Shown here: positions 3 through 19,698 of the stretch, in pieces
Layout of the letters: every line of letters begins with the position of its first letter
How positions within the stretch are numbered: position 1 is the first letter of the stretch
Source: a virus
Lineage: Duplodnaviria > Caudoviricetes
Virus record (IMG/VR): IMGVR_UViG_3300028197_000002
Direction: 5' to 3' (one strand)
Length of the DNA stretch: 64,000 bases
Program-made: the position numbers and the translations under genes
The notes under the pieces: model-generated
What the model was told of the DNA's origin: nothing
The model's database searches: none
What the model saw: the letters and a program-made list of their open reading frames with translations, nothing else

Positions 3-659
3 GACATAGAAGCGAAATTAGCTGCTGATGATACTGCTGATTTGTTTGAACTTCAAGATACTAATTTGTGGATGAAGTCAGAAGAAGAATTAAATTTCAA
101 GTGGAAAAAAGATTATGCCGAAGATATTCCTTATGAGTTGTTTGAACAAGCTAAAATTAATACGACAAAAATAGCAGAAAAATCAAAAGGCGTTGAATTA
201 GATAGGTCTATTAAGCTTCCTTATATGGAAGATGCTGATTTAAAATTATTAGAGGCTATTGAAGAAGGATTTTTAAAAAGACATCTTCCTAAAAATAAAA
301 CTTACTTGGGAAGAGTAAAAGAAGAGTATTCTCTTATTTGCAATAAAGGGTTTGCTTCTTATTTTCTTATTCAAAAAATAATGACAGACGAAGCCAGAAG
401 GATTTGTCCCACTTTACTGGGGTACGGAGATGGCTCAGAGGCAGTTGGTCCCGGAAGAGGAAGTGCTGTCGGCGCTTTGACTTGTTATTGCTTAGGCATT
501 ACGGATGTAGACCCAATTAAGCATGATTTGCTTTTTTCAAGGTTTTTAAGTCCTTCTCGTGGTGGAAAGCAAATGAAATTGAGATTTTCGATAGATCCGA
601 TAGAGGTCACAGAAGAATTTGCGAATGATTGTCCTTTTGATGTTCCTTTTAATTATTGA
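3..659 (+). CDS. dnaE: DNA polymerase III alpha subunit, N-terminal part (5'-truncated by window edge); first half of a split DnaE
   Basis: Frame is open from base 3. Contains R-x-x-E-E-Y...KGFASYFL, GPGRGSAVGALTCYCLGITDVDPIKHDLLFSRFLSPSR (DnaE GRGS and RFLNPER motifs), then stops before the PDIDVD motif. Confidence 0.93.
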   Translation, partial: DIEAKLAADDTADLFELQDTNLWMKSEEELNFKWKKDYAEDIPYELFEQAKINTTKIAEKSKGVELDRSIKLPYMEDADLKLLEAIEEGFLKRHLPKNKTYLGRVKEEYSLICNKGFASYFLIQKIMTDEARRICPTLLGYGDGSEAVGPGRGSAVGALTCYCLGITDVDPIKHDLLFSRFLSPSRGGKQMKLRFSIDPIEVTEEFANDCPFDVPFNY

Positions 660-710
660 AAATTTGATTCAATTTAACTATACTAGCTTAACAAGGAGTT
701 TTTAAATAAA

Positions 711-968
711 ATGAACATCAAAATATTAACTTTATCTACTGGTGTCGATATATTGGGATACATTGAATCTGAGGAAAGTAATTATTTCTTAGTTTCTAAT
801 CCTTATGTTATTAAGGCGTCAATAACAGATACGGAAGAAACCTTTACGCCTTATACTACATTTTCTGATAATAGTGTAAAGATATTTAAAACAGCAGTGG
901 TTGCTGAATTTGAGCCAGTTGAAAGACTTAAGATTTCTTACGCTGAAAAATTCGAAATTCCTGTTTGA
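711..968 (+). CDS. Hypothetical 85-aa protein, possibly Sm-like beta fold common in T4-like phages
   Basis: AAGGAG RBS upstream; IKILTLSTGVDILG...NPYVI pattern. Fold is inferred. Confidence 0.6.
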   Translation: MNIKILTLSTGVDILGYIESEESNYFLVSNPYVIKASITDTEETFTPYTTFSDNSVKIFKTAVVAEFEPVERLKISYAEKFEIPV

Positions 969-1729
969 TTATTTAGGAATTAAAAATTTTACTCTGACTT
1001 TATATGGGAAGCTTTGCGATCCTACGATTGCTTCTTGTTGATTATATTTACTTATAATCAATTTGTCAGCTTTGGGAAATAAAGATTTCATCCCTTCAAC
1101 TTTGTATCCTTTTGCTTTTAAGAAATCATTTAGTTTTTTCTCTATTTGATTTTTAGCATCTTTTTCACTTGAAGCAGTAATAACACCTGAGATATCAGCG
1201 ACAACTTCTATTCCACCTGTGCCTAAGTCTTCTGATTGTATGACGTCTATCATTGTGTCGCTGAATGTGACTTTTGATACGCCATCTTTTATTTCTTGAA
1301 TGTGTTTTGTGATGACTTGAGTATCGGCTTTCATTTTTGCCCCAAGTTTAAATAGTCTTTCTTCACTTGGAGATCTTTTGTCTCCAAAATCATATTCTAA
1401 ACTCGGTCGATTTTTTTTAAGCCAATCCCTATCTTGCTTAAAATCTTTTACGGCTTGTTTGTCTCCTTGCATGTCCGAGTAGGAATATGCATATTGTTGT
1501 TGATTTGGAGATTGTGCGGACACTTGTCCTATTCCAGCACCAGCCATTGCCGCAGCTAATGTTGCAGCCTTAGCTGTCTTTCCTAGTTTTGATTTTCCTA
1601 GCTTTTGTAACAATCCCGCTTCTAATAGATCAACAAGTTGCTCTTGAGTAGGTTCATCGTATCCTTCTTCGATAAGAATAGACTTGATAACTTTTATATC
1701 TTTGTCTTGTGTGTATTCTTTGAATGTTT

Positions 1730-1733
<4 letters not shown>
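969..1733 (-). CDS. Putative internal head protein with T4 capsid-targeting-like N-terminus
   Basis: Starts MKTFKEY (cf. T4 IP CTS MKTYQEFIAE); ILIEE and LLEA candidate L/I-x-E cleavage sites; followed by a hydrophobic Ala/Gly stretch. Confidence 0.7.
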
Positions 1734-3028
<1,295 letters not shown>

Positions 3029-3058
3029 TATTAAATTCTCCTATTAAGTAAACATTAT

Positions 3059-3066
3059 TATTTATA
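3059..3066 (-). promoter_or_regulatory. T4-type late promoter TATAAATA
   Basis: Exact TATAAATA on the minus strand ~30 nt upstream of the 3028 start. Confidence 0.65.
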
Positions 3067-3086
3067 CTCCACGTTGTAATTTTGAA

Positions 3087-3115
3087 TTGGTTTTTTATTG
3101 ATGATTTGTTATAAT
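3087..3115 (+). promoter_or_regulatory. sigma70-type promoter for the AAA-DnaE(C) operon
   Basis: TTGGTT-17 bp-TATAAT with a TG extension. Confidence 0.55.
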
Positions 3116-3150
3116 GTAAACTTAATTTTAGTTAAATAAAAAGGAATTTT

Positions 3151-4140
3151 ATGCCTGTTGTAAATACTCAATGTGACGAAGAGTCTGATTGGCTAGACTC
3201 TGTTTCCCCTGTTTCGGTTAATTCGGTGGAGTTCGAACTCGAATCGCCAAATTATCGAGGATTGAAGCAATTCACGACCACAGACGGCAAGAAATTCTTT
3301 GCAGCAGGGTCTACTGTTTCATCTTTGGTTCCGGGCACATATAACATTAAAGTGGATAATTCTGCTGGAATTTGTTTTCAAAAAATAGATATTGCGACTG
3401 ATGGGCTTTTAAGATTCCCAAATAGTAATTCTGAAAAGGTTATTGAAGAGATTTCTAAGTTTTGGGATCGAGAGTCTGTATTTAAGAAATACAATCTTAA
3501 TTATAAAAGAGGAATATTTTTATATGGACCACCCGGATCGGGGAAATCTTCAACAATACAAATTGTGTCAGAGGGTGTCGTAAAAAGAAACGGAGTTGTT
3601 TTTAAATTTAACAATCCATCTGTGTTTGTTGAAGGAATTAGAATTTTCAGAGAAATTCAACCAAACACTCCTGTCGTTGTTTTAATGGAAGATATTGACT
3701 CCACAATTGAAGCTTTTAATGAATCAGAAGTTTTAAATATATTAGATGGAGTTGATCAAGCAAGTAAAATTGTTTTTTTAGCCACAAGCAATTACCCAGA
3801 GCTTTTAAGTCAAAGGCTTTTAAATAGGCCAAGCAGATTTGATAAAAGATTTAAAATGGAACACCCTGATGAAAATGCAAGAAGATTGTATTTTAATAAT
3901 TTAATTGATGACGAAGCCATAGAAAATTCATCAATTGACATTGACCAATGGGTAGCAGAAACAGAGAATATGTCTATTGCTCACTTGAAAGAATTGTTTA
4001 TTACTGTTTGCATACTTGGGAATTCTTATACTGATTCTTTAGGGGCTTTGAAAGGTATGAGCAACATACCTCGTTCAGATGCAGATTATGATAAGAAAGT
4101 GGGGTTTGGTGTTAATTCTGGTGGGAAAGGTTGGAGATAA
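3151..4140 (+). CDS. AAA+ ATPase (BCS1/FtsH-like AAA domain)
   Basis: Walker A GPPGSGKS, Walker B VLMEDID, sensor ATSN, arginine finger NRPSRFD. Confidence 0.92.
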   Translation: MPVVNTQCDEESDWLDSVSPVSVNSVEFELESPNYRGLKQFTTTDGKKFFAAGSTVSSLVPGTYNIKVDNSAGICFQKIDIATDGLLRFPNSNSEKVIEEISKFWDRESVFKKYNLNYKRGIFLYGPPGSGKSSTIQIVSEGVVKRNGVVFKFNNPSVFVEGIRIFREIQPNTPVVVLMEDIDSTIEAFNESEVLNILDGVDQASKIVFLATSNYPELLSQRLLNRPSRFDKRFKMEHPDENARRLYFNNLIDDEAIENSSIDIDQWVAETENMSIAHLKELFITVCILGNSYTDSLGALKGMSNIPRSDADYDKKVGFGVNSGGKGWR

Positions 4141-6746
4141 TGGACAGCAGAGAAGAACTAATTAAAATTTGCATAACTGAAATGCAAAACAAAAACTTAA
4201 ATGATTCATTCTATAAGGATCGTTTGAAAAAAGAGTTTAAAGAAATAGACATTCAATCTGAACATGATTATTTTATAAAAATTTATGATAAAAAATTAAA
4301 GTTTGATAAAAATGAAAATAATCTTTTAGTGTGTTATTTGTTAGGAGCTTGCGATCAATTTGATAAAGATGTTGATCCTGTATATTCGCAAGGTGAGTTT
4401 CCTGATATTGATGTTGATTATCTTCCTGCTATTCAAGATTATTTAAGAAATAAATTTTGCCCAAAAGCTTTTGGAAGAGAAAATGTTGTAAACATAGGAA
4501 ATTATGGAACTTTTGGAATTAAATCTGCCTTATTAGATATGGCTAGGGTTCACGGTGCCGACAGAACAGAGATACAGACGATAACCAAAAATCTACAAGA
4601 TAAAGACGAAGAGGGTCAGCCACTAACATGGGAAAAGGCACTAGAGATTTCTCCTGCTTTGAGTGAGTATTGTGAAAGTTACCCAGAGGTTACAGATGCT
4701 GCTCGAAGATTAATTAATAGAAATAGAAGTAGAGGAAAACATGCTGGTGGAACTGTTATCTCAAGTGTTAAAATAGATGACTTTGTTCCAATTATGATAG
4801 ACACTGATGGGAATCCAGTTTCTGGTTGGACGGAAGGACTTCACGATCAAGATTTACAGCCTGTTGGTCTAATTAAATTTGATGTTCTTGCGATTAAAGA
4901 CTTGTTGAGAATTTCTACTTGTTGCCAATTGATCAGACAAAGGCATCCAGAAGTAAAATCAATTTGCGCATTGAAAAATGGTTCCGATTGGAGTGATATT
5001 TCTTACTTAGATGATTCTCAAGCTATTGAATTGGCGAACCAAGCCAAGACAAGAGGTGTTTTTCAATTTGATAGCGAAGGAATGAGAAACCTTGTTAAGT
5101 CAGGGGGAGTTAGCTCTTTTGAAGATTTGGTTGCGTACACAGCATTGTTTCGTCCCGGACCATTAGGAATGGGAATGCATGAAAAATATATTGATAGAAA
5201 AAAAGGCCGAGAGGATTGGAATGAAGACACTCCTGATTGTATAAAAGATATTTTAGGAACAACTTATGGTGTTTTATGTTATCAAGAGCAAGTAATGAAA
5301 GTTCTCAATAGAGTTGGAGACATTCCTCTTATTCATTGTGAGAAAATTAGAAAAGCGATCAGCAAGAAGAAGACAGATGAATTCATAAAGTATAAAGAAA
5401 TGTTTTTGGAGAAAGGTTCTGTAAAAACAGGATGGCCGCTTGTGTCAGAAGACAACAAGAACATGAATTATCTTTGGAGCCAAATCGAAGCTTTTGCTGG
5501 ATATGGTTTCAATAAGTCTCATGCCGTTGCGTACACTTATATATCTTCAAGATTGCTGTGGTTAAAGACTCACTATCCACTAGAGTTTTTTAACACCACT
5601 TTTAGGTTAGAGGCAGATGAAGACAAGGTTCGATCTTATAAAAGAGAAGCAGAAAAGCTTGGAATAGAAATTAAAAAATGTGATGCAAATAAATCAAAAG
5701 CAAGTTATGAAATTGTAGATGACAAGATTTACATAGGATTTTCAAACATAAAAGGAATTGGCAAAGATGTCGCGGATGAAATGGTCCGCAAGCAGCCTTA
5801 TTGTGGACTAGAAGATTTCCTTGAAAGGTTTGGGACTGACAAAAGAATTGTTGAACCTTTGATATATCTTGAGATTTTCAAAGAAAAGCCAATTAATTTC
5901 TTATTGGAATTTTATGAAGAATATAAAAAATGGTCTAAAAGTAAAACGGATCGAGGAAAGCGACAGGGAAAAAGAAAAAAAGAACTTAAGGAAATAATAT
6001 TTTCTTTTCTTAAAGAAGAACTGTTAGAAGATGGGAAAATAGATGAAATTCTAAGTGAAGATAAGTTGCTTTATCTTCATGACAACTTTGAAGAATTTGA
6101 CAATTCGCTTCTTTCGGTAGAGTTTTCTAAAGAGGATTTGCTTCCTACTTTGAAAAAATATTATAGGTCTGTCACAAGTTATAGAGAAAAGATACGAGTG
6201 ATCGAAAATGATCCGCTATCTTTGAATAATTGGAATTCTACTGATAAGTACAAGCTAAGTTCTATTCCCAATCAATTTGATATTGAGAAAAAATATTATG
6301 GATTTAGTTGGCAACACCCTCTTGAGAAAAGCCCTGATTATTATGGAGATAATTTATCTTTCAATAGATTTAAAGATGACGATTCAATATTGAAAACAGG
6401 CGTGGAATGCATGATTATAAAAAAGCCTGAAGAAAAAATATCTAAAAAGGGAAACAAGTATTACTATGTTTTGGTTGAAGATGATAACTGGAATATTGAA
6501 GTCGTCACTTTTTGGGAAGAAGACTATTTGAGATTTAAAGATGAGATTAATTATTGGAATGAAGATGAAAAAAGAGGCAACTTACTACAATTAAGATGTA
6601 CAAGGCCCGGAAAAGGATTTAAATCTTATACTTTTGAATCGCCTTCCAAGCGAGATAGGCACAAATTGCCTGAAGACAAAAAGAAAGACTATAGACTTAG
6701 AGTCATGAGGGCGCCAATTTTAAGAGGTGAAGAATCTAATGAGTGA
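4140..6746 (+). CDS. dnaE: DNA polymerase III alpha subunit, C-terminal (catalytic) part of a split DnaE
   Basis: FPDIDVD catalytic motif, KHAGG, GLIKFDVL, GVFQF, ALFRPGP, YQEQVM, GYGFNKSHA, HhH IKGIG and a C-terminal OB-like segment. Start placed at the ATG after GGAG. Confidence 0.96.
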   Translation: MDSREELIKICITEMQNKNLNDSFYKDRLKKEFKEIDIQSEHDYFIKIYDKKLKFDKNENNLLVCYLLGACDQFDKDVDPVYSQGEFPDIDVDYLPAIQDYLRNKFCPKAFGRENVVNIGNYGTFGIKSALLDMARVHGADRTEIQTITKNLQDKDEEGQPLTWEKALEISPALSEYCESYPEVTDAARRLINRNRSRGKHAGGTVISSVKIDDFVPIMIDTDGNPVSGWTEGLHDQDLQPVGLIKFDVLAIKDLLRISTCCQLIRQRHPEVKSICALKNGSDWSDISYLDDSQAIELANQAKTRGVFQFDSEGMRNLVKSGGVSSFEDLVAYTALFRPGPLGMGMHEKYIDRKKGREDWNEDTPDCIKDILGTTYGVLCYQEQVMKVLNRVGDIPLIHCEKIRKAISKKKTDEFIKYKEMFLEKGSVKTGWPLVSEDNKNMNYLWSQIEAFAGYGFNKSHAVAYTYISSRLLWLKTHYPLEFFNTTFRLEADEDKVRSYKREAEKLGIEIKKCDANKSKASYEIVDDKIYIGFSNIKGIGKDVADEMVRKQPYCGLEDFLERFGTDKRIVEPLIYLEIFKEKPINFLLEFYEEYKKWSKSKTDRGKRQGKRKKELKEIIFSFLKEELLEDGKIDEILSEDKLLYLHDNFEEFDNSLLSVEFSKEDLLPTLKKYYRSVTSYREKIRVIENDPLSLNNWNSTDKYKLSSIPNQFDIEKKYYGFSWQHPLEKSPDYYGDNLSFNRFKDDDSILKTGVECMIIKKPEEKISKKGNKYYYVLVEDDNWNIEVVTFWEEDYLRFKDEINYWNEDEKRGNLLQLRCTRPGKGFKSYTFESPSKRDRHKLPEDKKKDYRLRVMRAPILRGEESNE

Positions 6747-8182: not shown

Positions 8183-9214
8183 GTGGAAGAATTTAAAAAA
8201 ATATTAGAAGGTAAAACTAAGGCTTGTTTATTTACCCACCCTTTCCCTGATCCAGATGCTATTGGAAGTATGATGGGTATGAGTTGGGTTTTAGACAAAC
8301 TTGGGATTAAATCTAACATGTATTATGATGGGGTCATATCCCATCCTCAAAATAAATCTATGGTCAATCTTTTGGACTTAGAGTTAATTCCTTTGTCCAA
8401 TTATGACAGTGATCTCTATGACCAAAGTACAACTTTGAACATCTTGTTGGACACAGTCCCAGACAATGCTGGCGCTCCAAATGAAGTTTCTTTTGACATG
8501 GTCATAGATCACCACAAAGACTTCCCATTAGATTACAAAGGTGTTTATTTAAATTTAAAATCTGGAAGTGCCTGTTCTGTTGTTTATAATCTTATAGAAC
8601 AATTAGAATTAGAGTTTGAAGAAGACAAGCTGGCAGATAATAAAGTTGCCACTGCAATGATGATAGGAATTACCACGGACACAGAATTTTTAATGTCTGA
8701 TGACTGTAGTGATCATGAATTTTTTGCTTGGAGTAAATTGTTTCAATTTAGAGATCCAACTCTTCTAAAGCAGATCGTTCATTATGAAAGGCCTAAGTTT
8801 TGGATCGACTCTAAGGCTACTGCTTGCGCCAAGGCAATTGTAGATGAAAGTGTTGGAGTTGTAGGAATGGGCTTAATTCCTCAAAAACATCGTGACATGA
8901 TCGCAGACATGGCTGATGAAATGGTTACTTGGGAGGACCTCCATACAGCGATTGTATTCGCTTTAGTCGATGGGAGCAGGATTGAAGGCTGTGTTAGAAC
9001 TAAAGCATCCTCTGTCTCTGCTCCTTCTTTGTGCAATGAGCTTGCTGGCAAATACGGATTAGGTGGAGGGAAGCTTGGGAAAGGCGCTTATAAATACGAA
9101 CTGTGTGGAGCAGGAATAGAAGAAGATGATGACGAAGATATTAAATTAAAAACTTGGGATCTGTTTCAAGACAAAGAAATAAGAAGGGTTTTCAGGATTG
9201 TAAAAAATAATTAA
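8183..9214 (+). CDS. DHH/DHHA1-family phosphoesterase (NrnA-like)
   Basis: HPFPDPDAIGS, LLDT, IDHH and ITTDT motifs; C-terminal GGG loop (GGGKLGKGA). Confidence 0.88.
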   Translation: MEEFKKILEGKTKACLFTHPFPDPDAIGSMMGMSWVLDKLGIKSNMYYDGVISHPQNKSMVNLLDLELIPLSNYDSDLYDQSTTLNILLDTVPDNAGAPNEVSFDMVIDHHKDFPLDYKGVYLNLKSGSACSVVYNLIEQLELEFEEDKLADNKVATAMMIGITTDTEFLMSDDCSDHEFFAWSKLFQFRDPTLLKQIVHYERPKFWIDSKATACAKAIVDESVGVVGMGLIPQKHRDMIADMADEMVTWEDLHTAIVFALVDGSRIEGCVRTKASSVSAPSLCNELAGKYGLGGGKLGKGAYKYELCGAGIEEDDDEDIKLKTWDLFQDKEIRRVFRIVKNN

Positions 9215-11770: not shown

Positions 11771-12010
11771 TTGAGAAAGCCACTAGTTAGAGTAGAACTT
11801 AAAGAAAGAGGCAGATCCAGTGCTGATAAGGATCGAGCCTTTAGACAACTTCTTTCCACATTTAAAAGAAGGGTTAATGAAGCTGGAATACTTACAACAT
11901 ATAAACAAAAGCAGTTTTATGAAAGCCCAAGTGAAAAAAGAAAGAGAAAAAGGAAAGAAGCAGAAGTAGAATCGCATAAAGAAAAAATAAGAAATTACTT
12001 TTCAAGGTAA
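11771..12010 (+). CDS. rpsU: 30S ribosomal protein bS21
   Basis: L..FKRRVNEAGIL..YKQKQFYESPSEKRKRKR matches bS21. Confidence 0.9.
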   Translation: MRKPLVRVELKERGRSSADKDRAFRQLLSTFKRRVNEAGILTTYKQKQFYESPSEKRKRKRKEAEVESHKEKIRNYFSR

Positions 12011-12020
12011 AAGGTGCAAA

Positions 12021-12293
12021 ATGTCAGATAAAAAAATAAAAATTATGAGTTTGTCTCTCGAACCAGAACTGCACGAACATATAAAAAATTCTGCAAAACG
12101 ACTCGGACACAAAAATGTTTCTAAAATGATTAGAGAGTTAATTTCTAATTACTTGGACTTAATGGTAAACGAAGGGGACGAAACTCCCGTCCTTCTCAAG
12201 GTTCCTAATGAAATTAGAAATGATGAAGAAGAATTGAAAAAATGGCTTTCTGTTAAATTAGAGGCTCTTTCAAAGGCTTTGTTAAAACAATGA
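12021..12293 (+). CDS. Ribbon-helix-helix (CopG-like) DNA-binding protein
   Basis: KIMSLSLEPELHEHIK..AKRLGHKNVSKMIRELI strand-helix-helix pattern. Confidence 0.7.
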   Translation: MSDKKIKIMSLSLEPELHEHIKNSAKRLGHKNVSKMIRELISNYLDLMVNEGDETPVLLKVPNEIRNDEEELKKWLSVKLEALSKALLKQ

Positions 12294-12772
12294 AAATAGT
12301 ACCTGTTGAAGATATCCCTAAAGAAATGGCAGACGTGTCATTGGATAATTTAAATGAGATATATGTCACAGGCAAAAAGATGGAGGCTATTTGTTTAGAA
12401 AACAATGGCATAGGGATTTCTGCTGCGCAGGTTGGAATTCCTTGGAATTTTTTTATTTATTGTGTTTATAAGAAAGATTTTCGTTACATAGTTAATTGTA
12501 AGTATGAGCCATTAACAGAAGAAAAATTTTCAGGGTTAGAGGGATGCCTTTCTATTTTAGATTCAAGTGGAAGTCCTAGAAGATTTAAAGTTCCTAGATA
12601 TAAAAAAATTAAAGTTTCTGGGTACGAGATTGTTTCTGGTGAAAAGCTGTATCTTGAAAAGTTCGAAAAAGATTTCACTCTTAGTCTAGAATCTGTTTTG
12701 ATTCAGCATGAAATAGATCATCAAGAAGGAGTTCTTATATCTGACATTGGCGAAGAGGTTCGGGTTTTTTAA
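12290..12772 (+). CDS. def: Peptide deformylase
   Basis: GIGISAAQVG, EGCLS, QHEIDHQEG. Confidence 0.96.
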   Translation: MKIVPVEDIPKEMADVSLDNLNEIYVTGKKMEAICLENNGIGISAAQVGIPWNFFIYCVYKKDFRYIVNCKYEPLTEEKFSGLEGCLSILDSSGSPRRFKVPRYKKIKVSGYEIVSGEKLYLEKFEKDFTLSLESVLIQHEIDHQEGVLISDIGEEVRVF

Positions 12773-13056: not shown

Positions 13057-13538
13057 TCGTCTCTAAGGAATTCGTATGCTTTTGTTTCCACTTTGGCCCC
13101 AAGAGCAGAAATTAAAACGCTTTCCTCAAGATCTTTGTTGTGCAAAGCTTTTATTTCTTTTCCCATAACCTCTGCTGTCTTTTTGTACTCTAAGGCTTTC
13201 TTTCTGTAATCATATATCAAGAATATAAGTAAAGAAAGCACGACAAGACCAACTATTAATCCTCCATCTCCTTGGAATAAAGTTACTCCTGTATTTTTTG
13301 TGTTTGAATTTATAAATCCATTTTGTAAATTTTCTATATCACCAGCTAAGATATCCAATTGGTTTCTTATTGCTGATATATCTGCTAATATTCCATTTTG
13401 ATTATTTTTTATATCTCCAATGTCTCCGCTTCCACCATTTATATTTGGTCCGTTTGGACTAAGAGGGCTAAATTTACATCCGGACACAAATAGGAAGCTA
13501 AAGCTCATAATGAGTGTGAACAAAAAATTTTTATACAT
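13053..13538 (-). CDS. Lipoprotein with internal TM helix (u-spanin-like topology)
   Basis: Start reassigned to the ATG at 13538 (AGGA RBS). Signal MYKNFLFTLIMSFSFLFVSG-C lipobox, heptad region, TM GGLIVGLVVLSLLIFLIY followed by DYRKK. Confidence 0.7.
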   Translation of the reverse strand: MYKNFLFTLIMSFSFLFVSGCKFSPLSPNGPNINGGSGDIGDIKNNQNGILADISAIRNQLDILAGDIENLQNGFINSNTKNTGVTLFQGDGGLIVGLVVLSLLIFLIYDYRKKALEYKKTAEVMGKEIKALHNKDLEESVLISALGAKVETKAYEFLRDD

Positions 13539-13560
13539 ATTGTTTTTCCTTTGTTTAAAT

Positions 13561-13869
13561 TTATTTTTTAATGTGAGCATCGGCCCATTTTGAGCTTTCT
13601 GGCATTTTATTGTCGTCTGTATACTTTTTCCATTTTTCGTAACTATACAGATCAATATATTCGCTTCTTCTTAATGGTCTATTTTCTTCTGCTTTTTTAA
13701 GAAGTCCTTGTCTTATCTTGTGTAATTCAGGATAGCTCGGACGACCAGAGTTTTGTCCTGCCACAACATTTGCTTTGTTTATTTTCTTTTCAAAAGAATT
13801 GCTAGTTTTTCTTAGATATTCTTTTCTTTCTAAGAAGTCAGAAAATTTTATAAAGCTTTGTTCTTTCAT
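13561..13869 (-). CDS. Basic hypothetical protein with CTS-like start (KFSDFLE)
   Basis: 102-aa ORF; ATATATA upstream. Confidence 0.7.
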   Translation of the reverse strand: MKEQSFIKFSDFLERKEYLRKTSNSFEKKINKANVVAGQNSGRPSYPELHKIRQGLLKKAEENRPLRRSEYIDLYSYEKWKKYTDDNKMPESSKWADAHIKK

Positions 13870-15255: not shown

Positions 15256-15702
15256 ATGGAATCATCAAAAGATATTACTGATTGGGATATTAAATTTTTA
15301 AAATTAGCCCAACACGTTTCAGATTGGTCAAAAGATCCAAGCACTAAAGTTGGAGCTGTTGTAGTCGATGAAGATAATAGGATTGTCTCTATTGGTTATA
15401 ACGGCTTTCCTAAAGGTGTTCGAGATGATGAAAGACTTGAGAATAGAGATGTTAAATATTCTTTAATTCTTCATGCTGAAGAAAACGCTTTGCTTTTTTC
15501 TAAACAGAATTTAAAAAATTGTAAAATCTATACTTACCCTTTGTTTCCGTGTTCTCGTTGTTGTGCAAAAATAATCCAGTGCGGAATAACTGAAATTATT
15601 GCTTTAAAAAATGAAAATCTAAGATGGAAAGACAGCATAAATCTTTCTATTAAAATTTGCGAAGAAGTTGGAATTTCTTATAAATTCGCCTCAGATCTCT
15701 AA
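15256..15702 (+). CDS. dCMP deaminase
   Basis: SKDPSTKVGAVV, IGYNG, HAEENAL, PCSRC. Confidence 0.93.
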   Translation: MESSKDITDWDIKFLKLAQHVSDWSKDPSTKVGAVVVDEDNRIVSIGYNGFPKGVRDDERLENRDVKYSLILHAEENALLFSKQNLKNCKIYTYPLFPCSRCCAKIIQCGITEIIALKNENLRWKDSINLSIKICEEVGISYKFASDL

Positions 15703-16813: not shown

Positions 16814-18331
16814 ATGGCTCAAAATTTTCCAGATAGTCCCGTCTTAAATGACTTGGCAACTGTTAATGGAATTGTTTATAAGTGGAATGGTTTTGCTTGG
16901 GATATTGTTCAATCAGCAGGAGCCAATGTTACCATTAGTGATAATGCGCCTTCTGCTCCTAGCGTTGGAGATCTTTGGTGGGAAAGTGATGTTGGTAGAC
17001 TTAAAGTTTATTATAATGATGGCGTGACGAGTCAATGGGTTGATGCAAGTCCATCTAGTTCCGGAATATCACTAACAAATTTAAGCATAGGATCAGAAGG
17101 AGTTGCTAGTGGAGATGGTTCTTTAGGCTACGACAATACAACAGGAGTTTTTACTTACACTCCTCCTGATTTAAGTAGTTATTTAACCGCTACTTTGGAT
17201 GCTGATATTGACTTAAATGGAAATTCCATAGTCGATTCAACCTTAGCAGGTTTTGTAACATCTAATTTAAGAACATTCGAAACGAAAATTCAATTAGGTG
17301 GAGATTCAGATGCTGACACTTATGGATATGCCATTGGGCAAGAAGCACAAGCCGGTATATATGATGTTACTATTGGTGCATATGCAGGAAAAAATAAAAA
17401 AACTACAAACAATAATTACTCTATTGGAATCGGAGCGTTTGCTCAACAAAATTCAAATCCGGGCGATGAAACAGGAACTGGAGCTATAGCTATAGGAGTT
17501 TTGGCTGGAGATGCTAATCAAGGCGAAAATGCTTTGGCTTTAGGAAGATATGCTGGAAGAAATAATCAAGCCACTAAAAGCATTGTAATTAATGCTACTG
17601 GTAGTGATTTAGAAAATATAACTGCAAATAGCTGTGTCGTTAAGCCCATCAGAAATGCGGCAGGAACACATGGCTTAGAGTATGATCCTGCAAGTGGAGA
17701 AATCACATATGACACATTGTCGTCAGGTGGAATTTCAGACTCTATAACAGAAGGAAATTCTAGTGTGGAGGTCACAGATACAGGTTCAGATGGGCATATA
17801 GACCTAACTACAGAAGGAACTTTGAGATGGGAGATAACGTCAACAGGACATCTTCTTCCATCCACAAATGAAGATTATGACATAGGCTCTGCTAGTAGAA
17901 AAGTTAGGCATTTGTTTTTAAGCGATAATTCTCTTTATTTTGTAGATTCTTCTGATAACGAAAGAGTTCTTAATGTTAATAGCGATGGAAAAATTGTTTT
18001 CGATGGATCTAATATAGCAGACAGAAGCTCTGAAGTTCCTTCGAACGGCGCTGTCATAGATTTAAATAAAACAAATCATTTTGTTTCTCCCGGAGAATCT
18101 TATGTTTTAGAAGATGGAACATACACAGGACAAGAACTTAGTTTTTGGAAACAGGTAGGAGTTGGCTATCCTGAAATAAATGTTTCTAATGCTCTTTGGA
18201 CTAGTACAGGAAATTCAACAGGTATTGAGTCTTCATTTGTTTGGAGATTAAGTGGGGATTATGTCGGCAAGTTTTCTTGTGTATGGAATGGTGCGCAATG
18301 GTGCTTGAGTAGTGGGGAGACAGGAGTTTAA
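16814..18331 (+). CDS. Tail fibre / virion protein
   Basis: NFPDSP...YKWNG..W, GDLWWESDVGRLKVYYNDG, YDNTTGVFTYTPPDL, AIG-repeat (YadA-like) segment, HLLPSTNEDYDIGSASRKVRHLF. Confidence 0.8.
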   Translation: MAQNFPDSPVLNDLATVNGIVYKWNGFAWDIVQSAGANVTISDNAPSAPSVGDLWWESDVGRLKVYYNDGVTSQWVDASPSSSGISLTNLSIGSEGVASGDGSLGYDNTTGVFTYTPPDLSSYLTATLDADIDLNGNSIVDSTLAGFVTSNLRTFETKIQLGGDSDADTYGYAIGQEAQAGIYDVTIGAYAGKNKKTTNNNYSIGIGAFAQQNSNPGDETGTGAIAIGVLAGDANQGENALALGRYAGRNNQATKSIVINATGSDLENITANSCVVKPIRNAAGTHGLEYDPASGEITYDTLSSGGISDSITEGNSSVEVTDTGSDGHIDLTTEGTLRWEITSTGHLLPSTNEDYDIGSASRKVRHLFLSDNSLYFVDSSDNERVLNVNSDGKIVFDGSNIADRSSEVPSNGAVIDLNKTNHFVSPGESYVLEDGTYTGQELSFWKQVGVGYPEINVSNALWTSTGNSTGIESSFVWRLSGDYVGKFSCVWNGAQWCLSSGETGV

Positions 18332-18348
18332 TTTTATAGGAGAACATT

Positions 18349-19698
18349 ATGGCATTTTCATTCCCAACTTCACCTAGTGTTAGTGACACTGTTACTTTAG
18401 GTGGATTAGTTTATATATGGAATGGTTCGAGTTGGGAAACCCAAGTTGTTAATTTAGGTCTTCTTAGCATTAACAATTTGAGCAACGTTGATTTCAATAG
18501 CGTCACTTTAGATGGAAGTAATGGTGACGGTAAAGTTTTAGCTTGGGATCAATCATTGCAATCTTTTGCTCCTATAGATCAATCTGCAGATCTTAGCGTA
18601 ACAACAGCTGCTGCATCAACAACGCCTAGTTTAGCATATGATGATGGAACTGGAGTGTTCACATACACACCTCCAGATTTAGGAAGCTCTATAGTATCTC
18701 AGTCAGAATATTCCAGCACAATAACAACAAATGCATCTGACGCTTCAGAAACTGGATCTTATATCCTAGGGAACACAGGCGCAGCAAGTGCGACTGGATC
18801 ATCCACAGGTTGGTTTTTTGGAGACATTGTTCAAGATCCTGATAATCCGGGAACATCAATTATACTTGATGTAGACAGTGCTATTTTTGGCCCCGGAACA
18901 ACTCTAGGAAATCATGATGGCAATGTTCGAACTCCTACTGGTTCACATACCATTTTAGACGTAGGAACAGATGGAACAGATGGCACATTAACCATTACAA
19001 ATATTACGGCAGATGGAACTTTAGATTTTTCTGGCGCGACTGTTACTGGTGTAGTGGCAGGATCAGACACGCAGATTCAATTTAACAATAGTGGATCTTT
19101 TGGGGCTGATGCTAATTTAATATTTAATTCTTCTGAGCAAAGAGTTGTTGTTGGCTCAGGAGGAACCGGCAAGTTCGAAGCATCAAGTTTCATGGGTCAT
19201 GCTGATCAAACAACATATGTTTCTTCGCAGACTACGGGTTCGGAAAGCACTCACTTTGCTTTAAATAGTACAAGTGGAGTGCTAACTAATATTTATGGAT
19301 TTACTACATTTCAAGGAAACGCTTGTTTTGAAAAACAGGTTCAAGAAAAATTTAGCACAATAAATGCAGCGACTGGAACAGTGACTCATGATTTAGATGA
19401 TGGTCAAGTATTTAGACACACAAGTCCTTCAGCTGACTTTACTGCTAATTTAACAAATATAAATTTAACTGGCGATCATGCAATGACCGTTACAATTGTG
19501 ATTGAACAAGGAGCAACAGCGTTTATTGTTAGTTCGATACAAATTGGAGGAGCTTCTCAAACAATAGAATGGCAAGGGGGAATTACACCTTCTGGTACAG
19601 ACAATGGATTTGATATAATGAGTTTTAGTATATTAAATACAGGAACGACAGGATCTCCTTCTTATTTGGTGATGGGACAATTGGTTGACTTTGCTTAG
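18349..19698 (+). CDS. Tail fibre / virion protein
   Basis: FSFPTSP...YIWNG..W, YDDGTGVFTYTPPDL, GSDTQIQFNNSGSFG; C-terminal beta domain (WQGG..PSGT..G.DI.SF). Confidence 0.8.
   Translation: MAFSFPTSPSVSDTVTLGGLVYIWNGSSWETQVVNLGLLSINNLSNVDFNSVTLDGSNGDGKVLAWDQSLQSFAPIDQSADLSVTTAAASTTPSLAYDDGTGVFTYTPPDLGSSIVSQSEYSSTITTNASDASETGSYILGNTGAASATGSSTGWFFGDIVQDPDNPGTSIILDVDSAIFGPGTTLGNHDGNVRTPTGSHTILDVGTDGTDGTLTITNITADGTLDFSGATVTGVVAGSDTQIQFNNSGSFGADANLIFNSSEQRVVVGSGGTGKFEASSFMGHADQTTYVSSQTTGSESTHFALNSTSGVLTNIYGFTTFQGNACFEKQVQEKFSTINAATGTVTHDLDDGQVFRHTSPSADFTANLTNINLTGDHAMTVTIVIEQGATAFIVSSIQIGGASQTIEWQGGITPSGTDNGFDIMSFSILNTGTTGSPSYLVMGQLVDFA

Follow-up and report, generated by a model that had tools for sequence, protein, structure and literature searches.

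A stretch of 64,000 nucleotides (nt) from an uncultured marine giant phage, the IMG/VR virus record IMGVR_UViG_3300028197_000002 (Duplodnaviria; Caudoviricetes), referred to below as the window, carries at its 5′ end two separate genes for the replicative DNA polymerase DnaE (family C). It is very probable that these genes specify a working two-subunit enzyme, whose halves are never rejoined, rather than a broken gene. The first gene (part 1) is represented by its last 218 codons and stop codon (positions 3–659, + strand), recognized from the list of open reading frames (ORFs) and a PF07733 match, and is open at the 5′ end of the window. According to the gene tables of two identical contigs (L002 and L003), the full gene starts ~740 bp before the window and encodes 465 amino acids (aa), including a PHP domain (PF02811 and DNA_pol3_alpha) that lies outside it. 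The second gene (part 2; 4140–6746, + strand) encodes 868 aa comprising a leader, the remaining palm, thumb, fingers, HhH and a C-terminal region; besides PF07733, Pfam searches identified PF17657 (E 2.9e-40) and PF14579 (E 3.8e-12), followed by ~280 more C-terminal residues. In the ORF list, 3.5 kb separate the halves; this interval holds four genes, two of them antisense. The original prediction, made from the letters of the window, described these ORFs correctly except for the start of part 2, which is likely the ATG at 4140 (preceded 6 nt upstream by GGAG and overlapping the stop codon of the adjacent AAA+ gene as ATAATG) and not the TTG at 4131.

Alignment of both ORFs to the DnaE profile revealed that PF07733 is divided exactly, with profile positions 5–98 on part 1 and 100–260 on part 2. 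Therefore, the break is located between the portion containing GRGS and ...FLSPSR and the FPDIDVD strand. Part 1 alone contains the triphosphate-binding (GS) motif GPGRGS (447–464, + strand), in which G396, G398, R399, G400 and S401 are invariant in 40 sequences, and the final canonical DnaE segment LLFSRFLSPSR (528–560, + strand), where the Pfam alignment ends and L423, L424, F425, R427, F428 and R433 are invariant. The last of these, R433, is the Arg of E. coli ...NPER and does not vary among the 40 part-1 sequences. Part 2 opens its canonical portion with the catalytic strand FPDIDVD (4398–4418, + strand), whose D89, D91 and D93 (equivalents of E. coli D401/D403) are invariant in a 36-sequence alignment. 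The third catalytic Asp, D248 in ...KFDVL... (4881–4883, + strand), which we take to be the equivalent of E. coli D555, is likewise invariant in this alignment, together with K246 and L250. The cut thus parts the GRGS/Arg residues from the catalytic aspartates, as had been predicted.

Structural superposition with VIA-align paired residue 82 of the part-2 model with residue 394 of E. coli alpha and residue 456 of Taq alpha, which locates the break in standard DnaE numbering (Z 22.0, rmsd 5.3 and 399 aligned residues against 2hpi; Z 20.9 against 2hnh). The losses are complementary: GRGS and the Arg are in part 1 and all three Asp sites are in part 2. GRGS is absent from every leader-bearing part-2 representative (99 of the best 150 cluster representatives), and the DxD strand from all of the best 120 part-1-like matches. 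All palm elements of family C (GS motif, DxD strand and third Asp) are therefore present, spread over two chains. The enzyme has the fold, fingers and HhH of a DnaE; it departs from the single-polypeptide rule, being encoded by two genes of which no joined form was seen.

The leader (part-2 residues 1–85; 4140–4394, + strand), with four predicted helices, is a second copy of the palm-entry module. The working copy comprises residues 325–421 of part 1 (234–524, + strand), namely three helices, the GRGS loop and the helix ...LTCYCLGITDVDP. A homologous relation between the leader and the part-1 end had been proposed from the letters alone. A simple BLASTP comparison of the two was insufficient to support it (E 0.29, not significant), and profile comparisons with hhalign established it: a leader profile of 79 sequences matched the C-terminal end of part 1 (Prob 94.9%, E 4.3e-8, 76 columns) and a junction profile of 18 intact DnaEs (Prob 98.1%, E 1.1e-13, 82 columns). 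The overlap is also seen in tblastn searches, in which part-1 residues 1–186 (numbered from the window fragment) and part-2 residues 66–860 overlap on the intact 1179-aa DnaE of LR756511.1, and many intact phage DnaEs align to part 2 already from residue 18–29. Of the palm entry, the leader has kept the helices ...Y..RL..E..EI..., the element ...DYF... and the helix ...LLVxYLLG...; it has lost ~20 residues holding GPGRGS (now ...KNENN...) and the ...LLFSRFL..R segment.

Part 1 in turn ends with a tail of 32 aa plus the stop codon (561–659, + strand), the first 13 aa of which (GGKQMKLRFSIDP) are conserved. A greedy hhalign alignment, of low column confidence, places MKLRF of the tail against VDVDF of intact DnaE, with Lys/Arg at the positions of the catalytic Asp residues. 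No direct repeat connects the two module copies at the DNA level, so the putative duplication would be old. A 16-nt repeat at 4361/4403 was considered as a trace of this event and rejected, since it reflects only the likeness of ...DKDVD... and ...DIDVD....

A length-restricted search for part-1-sized proteins yielded 4633 matches; the best 120 of these are all 395–619 aa long and contain PHP and a partial palm with the common end ...FSRFLSxxRG.... An exhaustive part-2 search gave 20,986 matches. Among its best 150 representatives (50% clusters), 99 have a leader with DxD at residues 60–125, the others being 7 with a longer leader, 6 intact forms and 38 fragments. The 36-sequence alignment shows no variation at leader positions E32 and N58 and almost none at R28, Y44, L67 and L68. 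Taken as a whole, the leader has a mean pairwise identity of 37%, and its NENN-LLVxYLLG stretch, at 52%, is on a level with the catalytic core (48–51%); the first 13 residues of the tail reach 62% and the whole of part 1 ~64%. The leader was originally regarded as a “decayed” copy; instead, it is under selection in ~100 representatives sharing at most 50% identity. Since the split with its leader is common to all of these, the arrangement is old and widespread, and not particular to this phage.

Both halves co-occur in all five records of whole relatives (G001–G005, i.e. L007, L016, L021, L038 and L020), one of which is a complete 572-kb genome with terminal repeats. In each, PF07733 is divided into positions 3–98 and 100–259 on one strand and occurs nowhere else. 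The 98/100 cut is thus conserved in related huge phages, as the original prediction had proposed to verify. A further 22 IMG/VR loci carry both halves, co-oriented and in this order.

A model of the complex between part 1 and residues 1–520 of part 2 reached an interface score (ipSAE) of 0.82, compared to 0.00 for the best of three controls. This mark is attained by 58 of 80 solved complexes and 2 of 110 mismatched pairs, counts that are approximate here because the model used custom alignments. The runs agreed in at least 93% of contacts, with a partner confidence (pLDDT) of at least 84. In the predicted complex, part-1 residues 394–398 (GRGS loop) contact part-2 residues 93–95 (DxD strand), and the interface includes leader residues 32–70 and tail residues 434–449. 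Together with the co-occurrence of the halves, this prediction supports the two-chain complex suggested at the outset as the best reading of the locus.

According to this reading, subunit 1 would consist of PHP and the first half of the palm, whose GRGS loop and Arg would hold the incoming dNTP, and subunit 2 would supply the three catalytic Asp residues, thumb, fingers, HhH and C-terminal region, so that the active site would be assembled across both chains. Each subunit appears to retain a disabled copy of its partner's edge: subunit 2 would open with the conserved four-helix palm-entry copy devoid of GRGS, and subunit 1 would probably close with a version of the catalytic strand that lacks the Asp residues. 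A partial duplication is the most likely source of these overlaps; through it the gene would have been split without a dead intermediate, each copy losing a different function afterwards. Today they are probably folding or docking pieces.

Several points weigh against the two-subunit enzyme. The binding of the halves and their activity are predictions only, and the pass of the complex model is weakened because structures of intact DnaE have already been solved; it may reflect likeness to these rather than independent evidence of binding. The leader could be superposed on no DnaE structure, the VIA-align alignments beginning at model residues 80–83 (this is no proof that the leader lacks a known fold). 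The likeness of the tail to the catalytic strand, a low-confidence alignment of ~7 residues, is a tentative lead only. Each of the five relatives also has one short PolA-like ORF (408–456 aa; PF00476 at ~140–380), so the split DnaE is not their sole polymerase-like gene; family B polymerase (PF00136) is absent from all five records, including the complete one. Finally, a single clade of all split types as opposed to all intact forms was rejected (p-AU 0.025).

One alternative is that the gene was recently broken by a mobile cassette of the homing-endonuclease type, inserted into an intact dnaE as in nrdA or gene 43 of T4-like phages. In the latter, gene 43 is divided into intein-less A and B genes, and nrdA of Aeh1 is split by mobE. 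As in the window, an essential enzyme is cut within its catalytic domain into close, co-oriented genes (there the halves assemble non-covalently); unlike in the window, the enzymes belong to the family B polymerases (PolB) and ribonucleotide reductases, and a homing endonuclease gene lies between the halves. To our knowledge, no conserved overlapping duplicate accompanies the T4-like split genes. The highly variable spacing of the halves is compatible with a cassette: the gaps of relatives extend from 343 bp (L049), through 1–10 kb, to ~12 kb (L016). Moreover, the 7.8-kb gap of the 572-kb relative L007 contains HNH-type endonuclease genes (13414–13683 and 17989–18921); the gap between the halves looks like an insertion hot spot in this phage.

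On the other hand, the library searches found no endonuclease family among the four gap proteins of the window, and an insertion leaves the overlapping homologous ends unexplained, as it does the age of the split and leader. The available data also suggest that the split is older than all gap contents. These contents vary among relatives and often include homologs of the acidic protein and the AAA+ ATPase found in the window. The gene order of the split phages is PrkA-DUF444-SpoVR-(ClpP)-part 1-gap-part 2-...-p403-p377, and that of the closest intact relatives (L001, L039 and L041) PrkA-DUF444-SpoVR-acidic protein-AAA+-dnaE-p403-p377. The AAA+ gene precedes part 2 in many relatives (immediately so in the window); in the sisters it precedes the intact dnaE. 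The genes for the acidic protein and the AAA+ ATPase, being conserved dnaE neighbors located before the intact gene in the sisters, are no obvious foreign insert. A recent cassette insertion is consequently very unlikely.

Equally improbable is that part 2 polymerizes without part 1, the latter being an independent PHP nuclease or pyrophosphatase with a relic of the palm. Part 2 modeled in isolation does fold confidently (pLDDT 85.8), its leader forming a four-helix unit at ~90, and the leader, being a palm-entry duplicate, might in theory bridge the structural gap. Nevertheless, the junction strand is the weakest portion of this lone model (58–61), the GS motif and Arg segment are absent from part 2 in all representatives, and the halves occur together in all five whole relatives. 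Furthermore, the stretch from GRGS to the Arg (part-1 residues 396–433) is the best-conserved region of part 1, with a mean pairwise identity of 83%. It is also an intein target, and inteins home to functional sites: both mini and large forms are inserted exactly at GRG|S of part 1 in the relatives P0061, P0097, L007 (11212–12446), L038, L040 and L044.

Still less probable is a rejoining of the halves, whether at the protein level through a highly divergent split intein, or through RNA splicing, recoding or rearrangement of the DNA. Split inteins are classically associated with DnaE (in cyanobacteria and in fractured genes; PMC2677866), and the family is rich in inteins: apart from those at GRG|S, there is an interruption near query residue 460 in many of the long part-2 relatives, and of the 99 part-2 representatives with a leader, 34 are longer than 1000 aa. 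Both halves in the window itself are intein-free. Pfam searches detected no intein or Hint family on either half, tail and leader included, at E 0.01 or better, and because inteins are readily detected elsewhere in both halves of relatives, the break itself is not one. The tail begins with GGKQ (not Cys/Ser) and the leader ends with ...SQGE before FPDIDVD, without HN followed by Cys/Ser/Thr; the residues required for splicing are thus absent. The leader, moreover, is homologous to the DnaE palm and not to an intein. The original description of the split as intein-less therefore holds.

As regards RNA splicing, Rfam identified no intron at the break, and two of the gap genes are antisense. A joint skipping the gap was found in no sequencing run, including two metatranscriptome libraries, whose contigs cover the stretch patchily (one of the two RNA runs derives from a 90–95% relative), give neither expression levels nor transcript ends, and are uninformative for the uncovered parts.

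The possibility that dnaE is broken in this contig only, by misassembly or as a pseudogene, is negligible: the window is indeed metagenome-derived and contigs break at 1801–2082, within the acidic repeat gene of the gap, which is hard to assemble, but the identical part-2 protein and gene order are present on contigs of 259 kb (JGI), 303 kb (ENA) and 32 kb (Logan) from three sources, the same order recurs in the 22 further loci, and both halves are strongly conserved. Independent DNA runs agree with these three assemblies. Two runs not flagged as the possible source provide contigs that span the end of part 1 (55–716 and 619–873) and the start of part 2 (3718–4146 and 3860–4221). The stretch occurs in seawater and marine metagenomes of many studies.

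Having weighed these alternatives, we return to the two-subunit enzyme and its origin. The position of the gap genes, upstream of the whole gene in the sisters, fits a duplication that moved the 5′ portion of dnaE upstream, after which the downstream copy would have lost its N-terminal part. In the P0254 type, a distant group (L091/L092), part 1 directly precedes part 2 (TAA, 2 nt, ATG); the cut lies at the same point and part 2 has a homologous leader, which fits an internal tandem duplication. These adjacent halves, overlapping in homology, make the proposed fission via partial duplication plausible, as judged from sequence comparison. In P0237-type part 2 (L089/L090) no part 1 was found within 5 kb upstream or 10 kb downstream. 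The P0247 long-leader type (L093), encoded by a T4-like genome (Portal_T4, gp25), has no part 1 within 5–10 kb, and its ...LLGIS..DP... helix is separated from the DxD strand by ~100 additional residues.

Relationships were examined with a tree of 56 rows built on the part-2 core by quick searches, in which groups were named after inspection of the tree. The clade of the window (NENN type) as a single group was not rejected, the constrained tree being even better (p-AU 0.64). In the free quick tree, the intact LR756511-like forms fell inside the split clade, as expected after re-fusion; since the constrained tree is the better one, re-fusion is not claimed. Joining of the NENN clade with the T4-like long-leader group (Portal_T4 neighbors), which has the same N-x-N-N-L motif in place of GRGS, was not rejected (p-AU 0.19), so these two groups may share one origin.

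It is conceivable, though rather unlikely, that the overlaps constitute an evolved docking device derived from the enzyme itself, in which the GS-less palm-entry replica of part 2 and an Asp-less (Lys/Arg) replica of the catalytic strand on part 1 would pair with the genuine copies on the other chain, and also that fission by duplication and complementary loss has recurred at the same spot or been reversed by re-fusion in LR756511-like phages. If both were true, DnaE would be a natural model for the splitting and re-joining of an essential single-chain enzyme without a dead intermediate.

The intact sister DnaEs (LR756511.1, 595 kb; L039 and L041) share 56–58% identity with part 1 and 41% with part 2, and a PrkA-DUF444-SpoVR ... 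acidic protein, AAA+ ... p403-p377 neighborhood with the window. They differ in being a single chain (1179 aa), with GRGS and DxD 38 residues apart and without leader or tail, and in having the acidic-protein and AAA+ genes upstream of dnaE instead of between the halves.

In cyanobacteria, DnaE is broken in the fingers region, after extein residue 774; this split DnaE, with its naturally split DnaE intein, was reportedly described by Wu, Hu and Liu in 1998. The marine “fractured genes” (Dassa et al. 2009, PMC2677866) resemble the window in having a phage-like, marine DnaE in two genes. In both cases split inteins are present, the break is at other sites (PMC2677866), and the halves are ligated after translation. 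The halves in the window have no intein, so their chains must stay separate.

The closest published case comes from T4-like jumbo phages of group 2.2, whose “minimal” Pol III alpha is split without an intein (Iyer et al. 2021, PMC7824862). As described in that paper, the cut parts the NTP-binding from the Mg-binding subdomain, and the two distant genes occur alongside a family B polymerase. Both systems thus consist of two standalone intein-less proteins of very large phages with an NTP-/Mg-binding cut (for group 2.2, by the text of the source). In contrast, the enzyme of the window is full-size, with PHP on part 1 and the fingers, HhH and long C-terminal region on part 2; its halves are co-oriented and, in relatives, usually less than 10 kb apart; and the five relatives' records contain no PolB. 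Conserved overlapping modules, present in the window's enzyme, are not described for group 2.2 in the portions of PMC7824862 consulted. A tblastn search of phage records with the T4-like long-leader protein P0247 retrieved no close cultured phage that would tie this group to the published examples by sequence. With 8 kb as query, megablast gave no match in the phage records. No published description of this full-size two-gene form was found in the literature searched, whose coverage is incomplete.

The first of the four genes between the halves (711–968, + strand) encodes an 85-aa product assigned to phrog_527, a family without assigned function. It is followed by two genes antisense to dnaE, one for a 254-aa product that matched no family in the library searches (969–1733, − strand) and one for the acidic protein (1730–3028, − strand), 432 aa long with a long Asp/Glu/Met-rich repeat tail built of 9- and 33-nt units. 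The length of this repeat is variable, since the protein has 424 aa in other assemblies of the same phage and one run shows a TTC insert at 2221; its N-terminal part is kept beside dnaE in split and intact relatives. The fourth gene (3151–4140, + strand) encodes a 329-aa AAA+ ATPase (PF00004, E 1.6e-13) with a weak match to a phage clamp-loader PHROG, which may be a replication accessory or assembly factor. Promoter and terminator scans of the stretch gave results near shuffle level and defined no transcription units.

The region upstream of part 1, as seen on an identical contig (L002:1–4842), encodes PrkA, DUF444 (YeaH-like), SpoVR and ClpP, the PrkA-DUF444-SpoVR trio being syntenic throughout the phage group. 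Downstream of part 2, the gene table of an identical contig lists a DHH phosphoesterase (~8183–9214), ribosomal protein S21 (~11771–12010), peptide deformylase (~12290–12772) and dCMP deaminase (~15256–15702).

Family C polymerases are regarded as single-chain catalytic subunits. The natural DnaE splits reported so far are either healed by inteins or stripped-down “minimal” forms, whereas the enzyme described here is full-size and apparently divides its active site between two chains, with dNTP binding on one and metal binding on the other. This bears on annotation, since pipelines label both halves “DNA polymerase III alpha” or take them for fragments, and the overlaps hint at where DnaE could be cut for engineering. 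The phages that carry the split enzyme form a large and abundant group of marine giant phages, with no family B polymerase in the relatives checked. Their conserved overlaps offer a concrete and testable route of gene fission, in which duplication would be followed by complementary loss.

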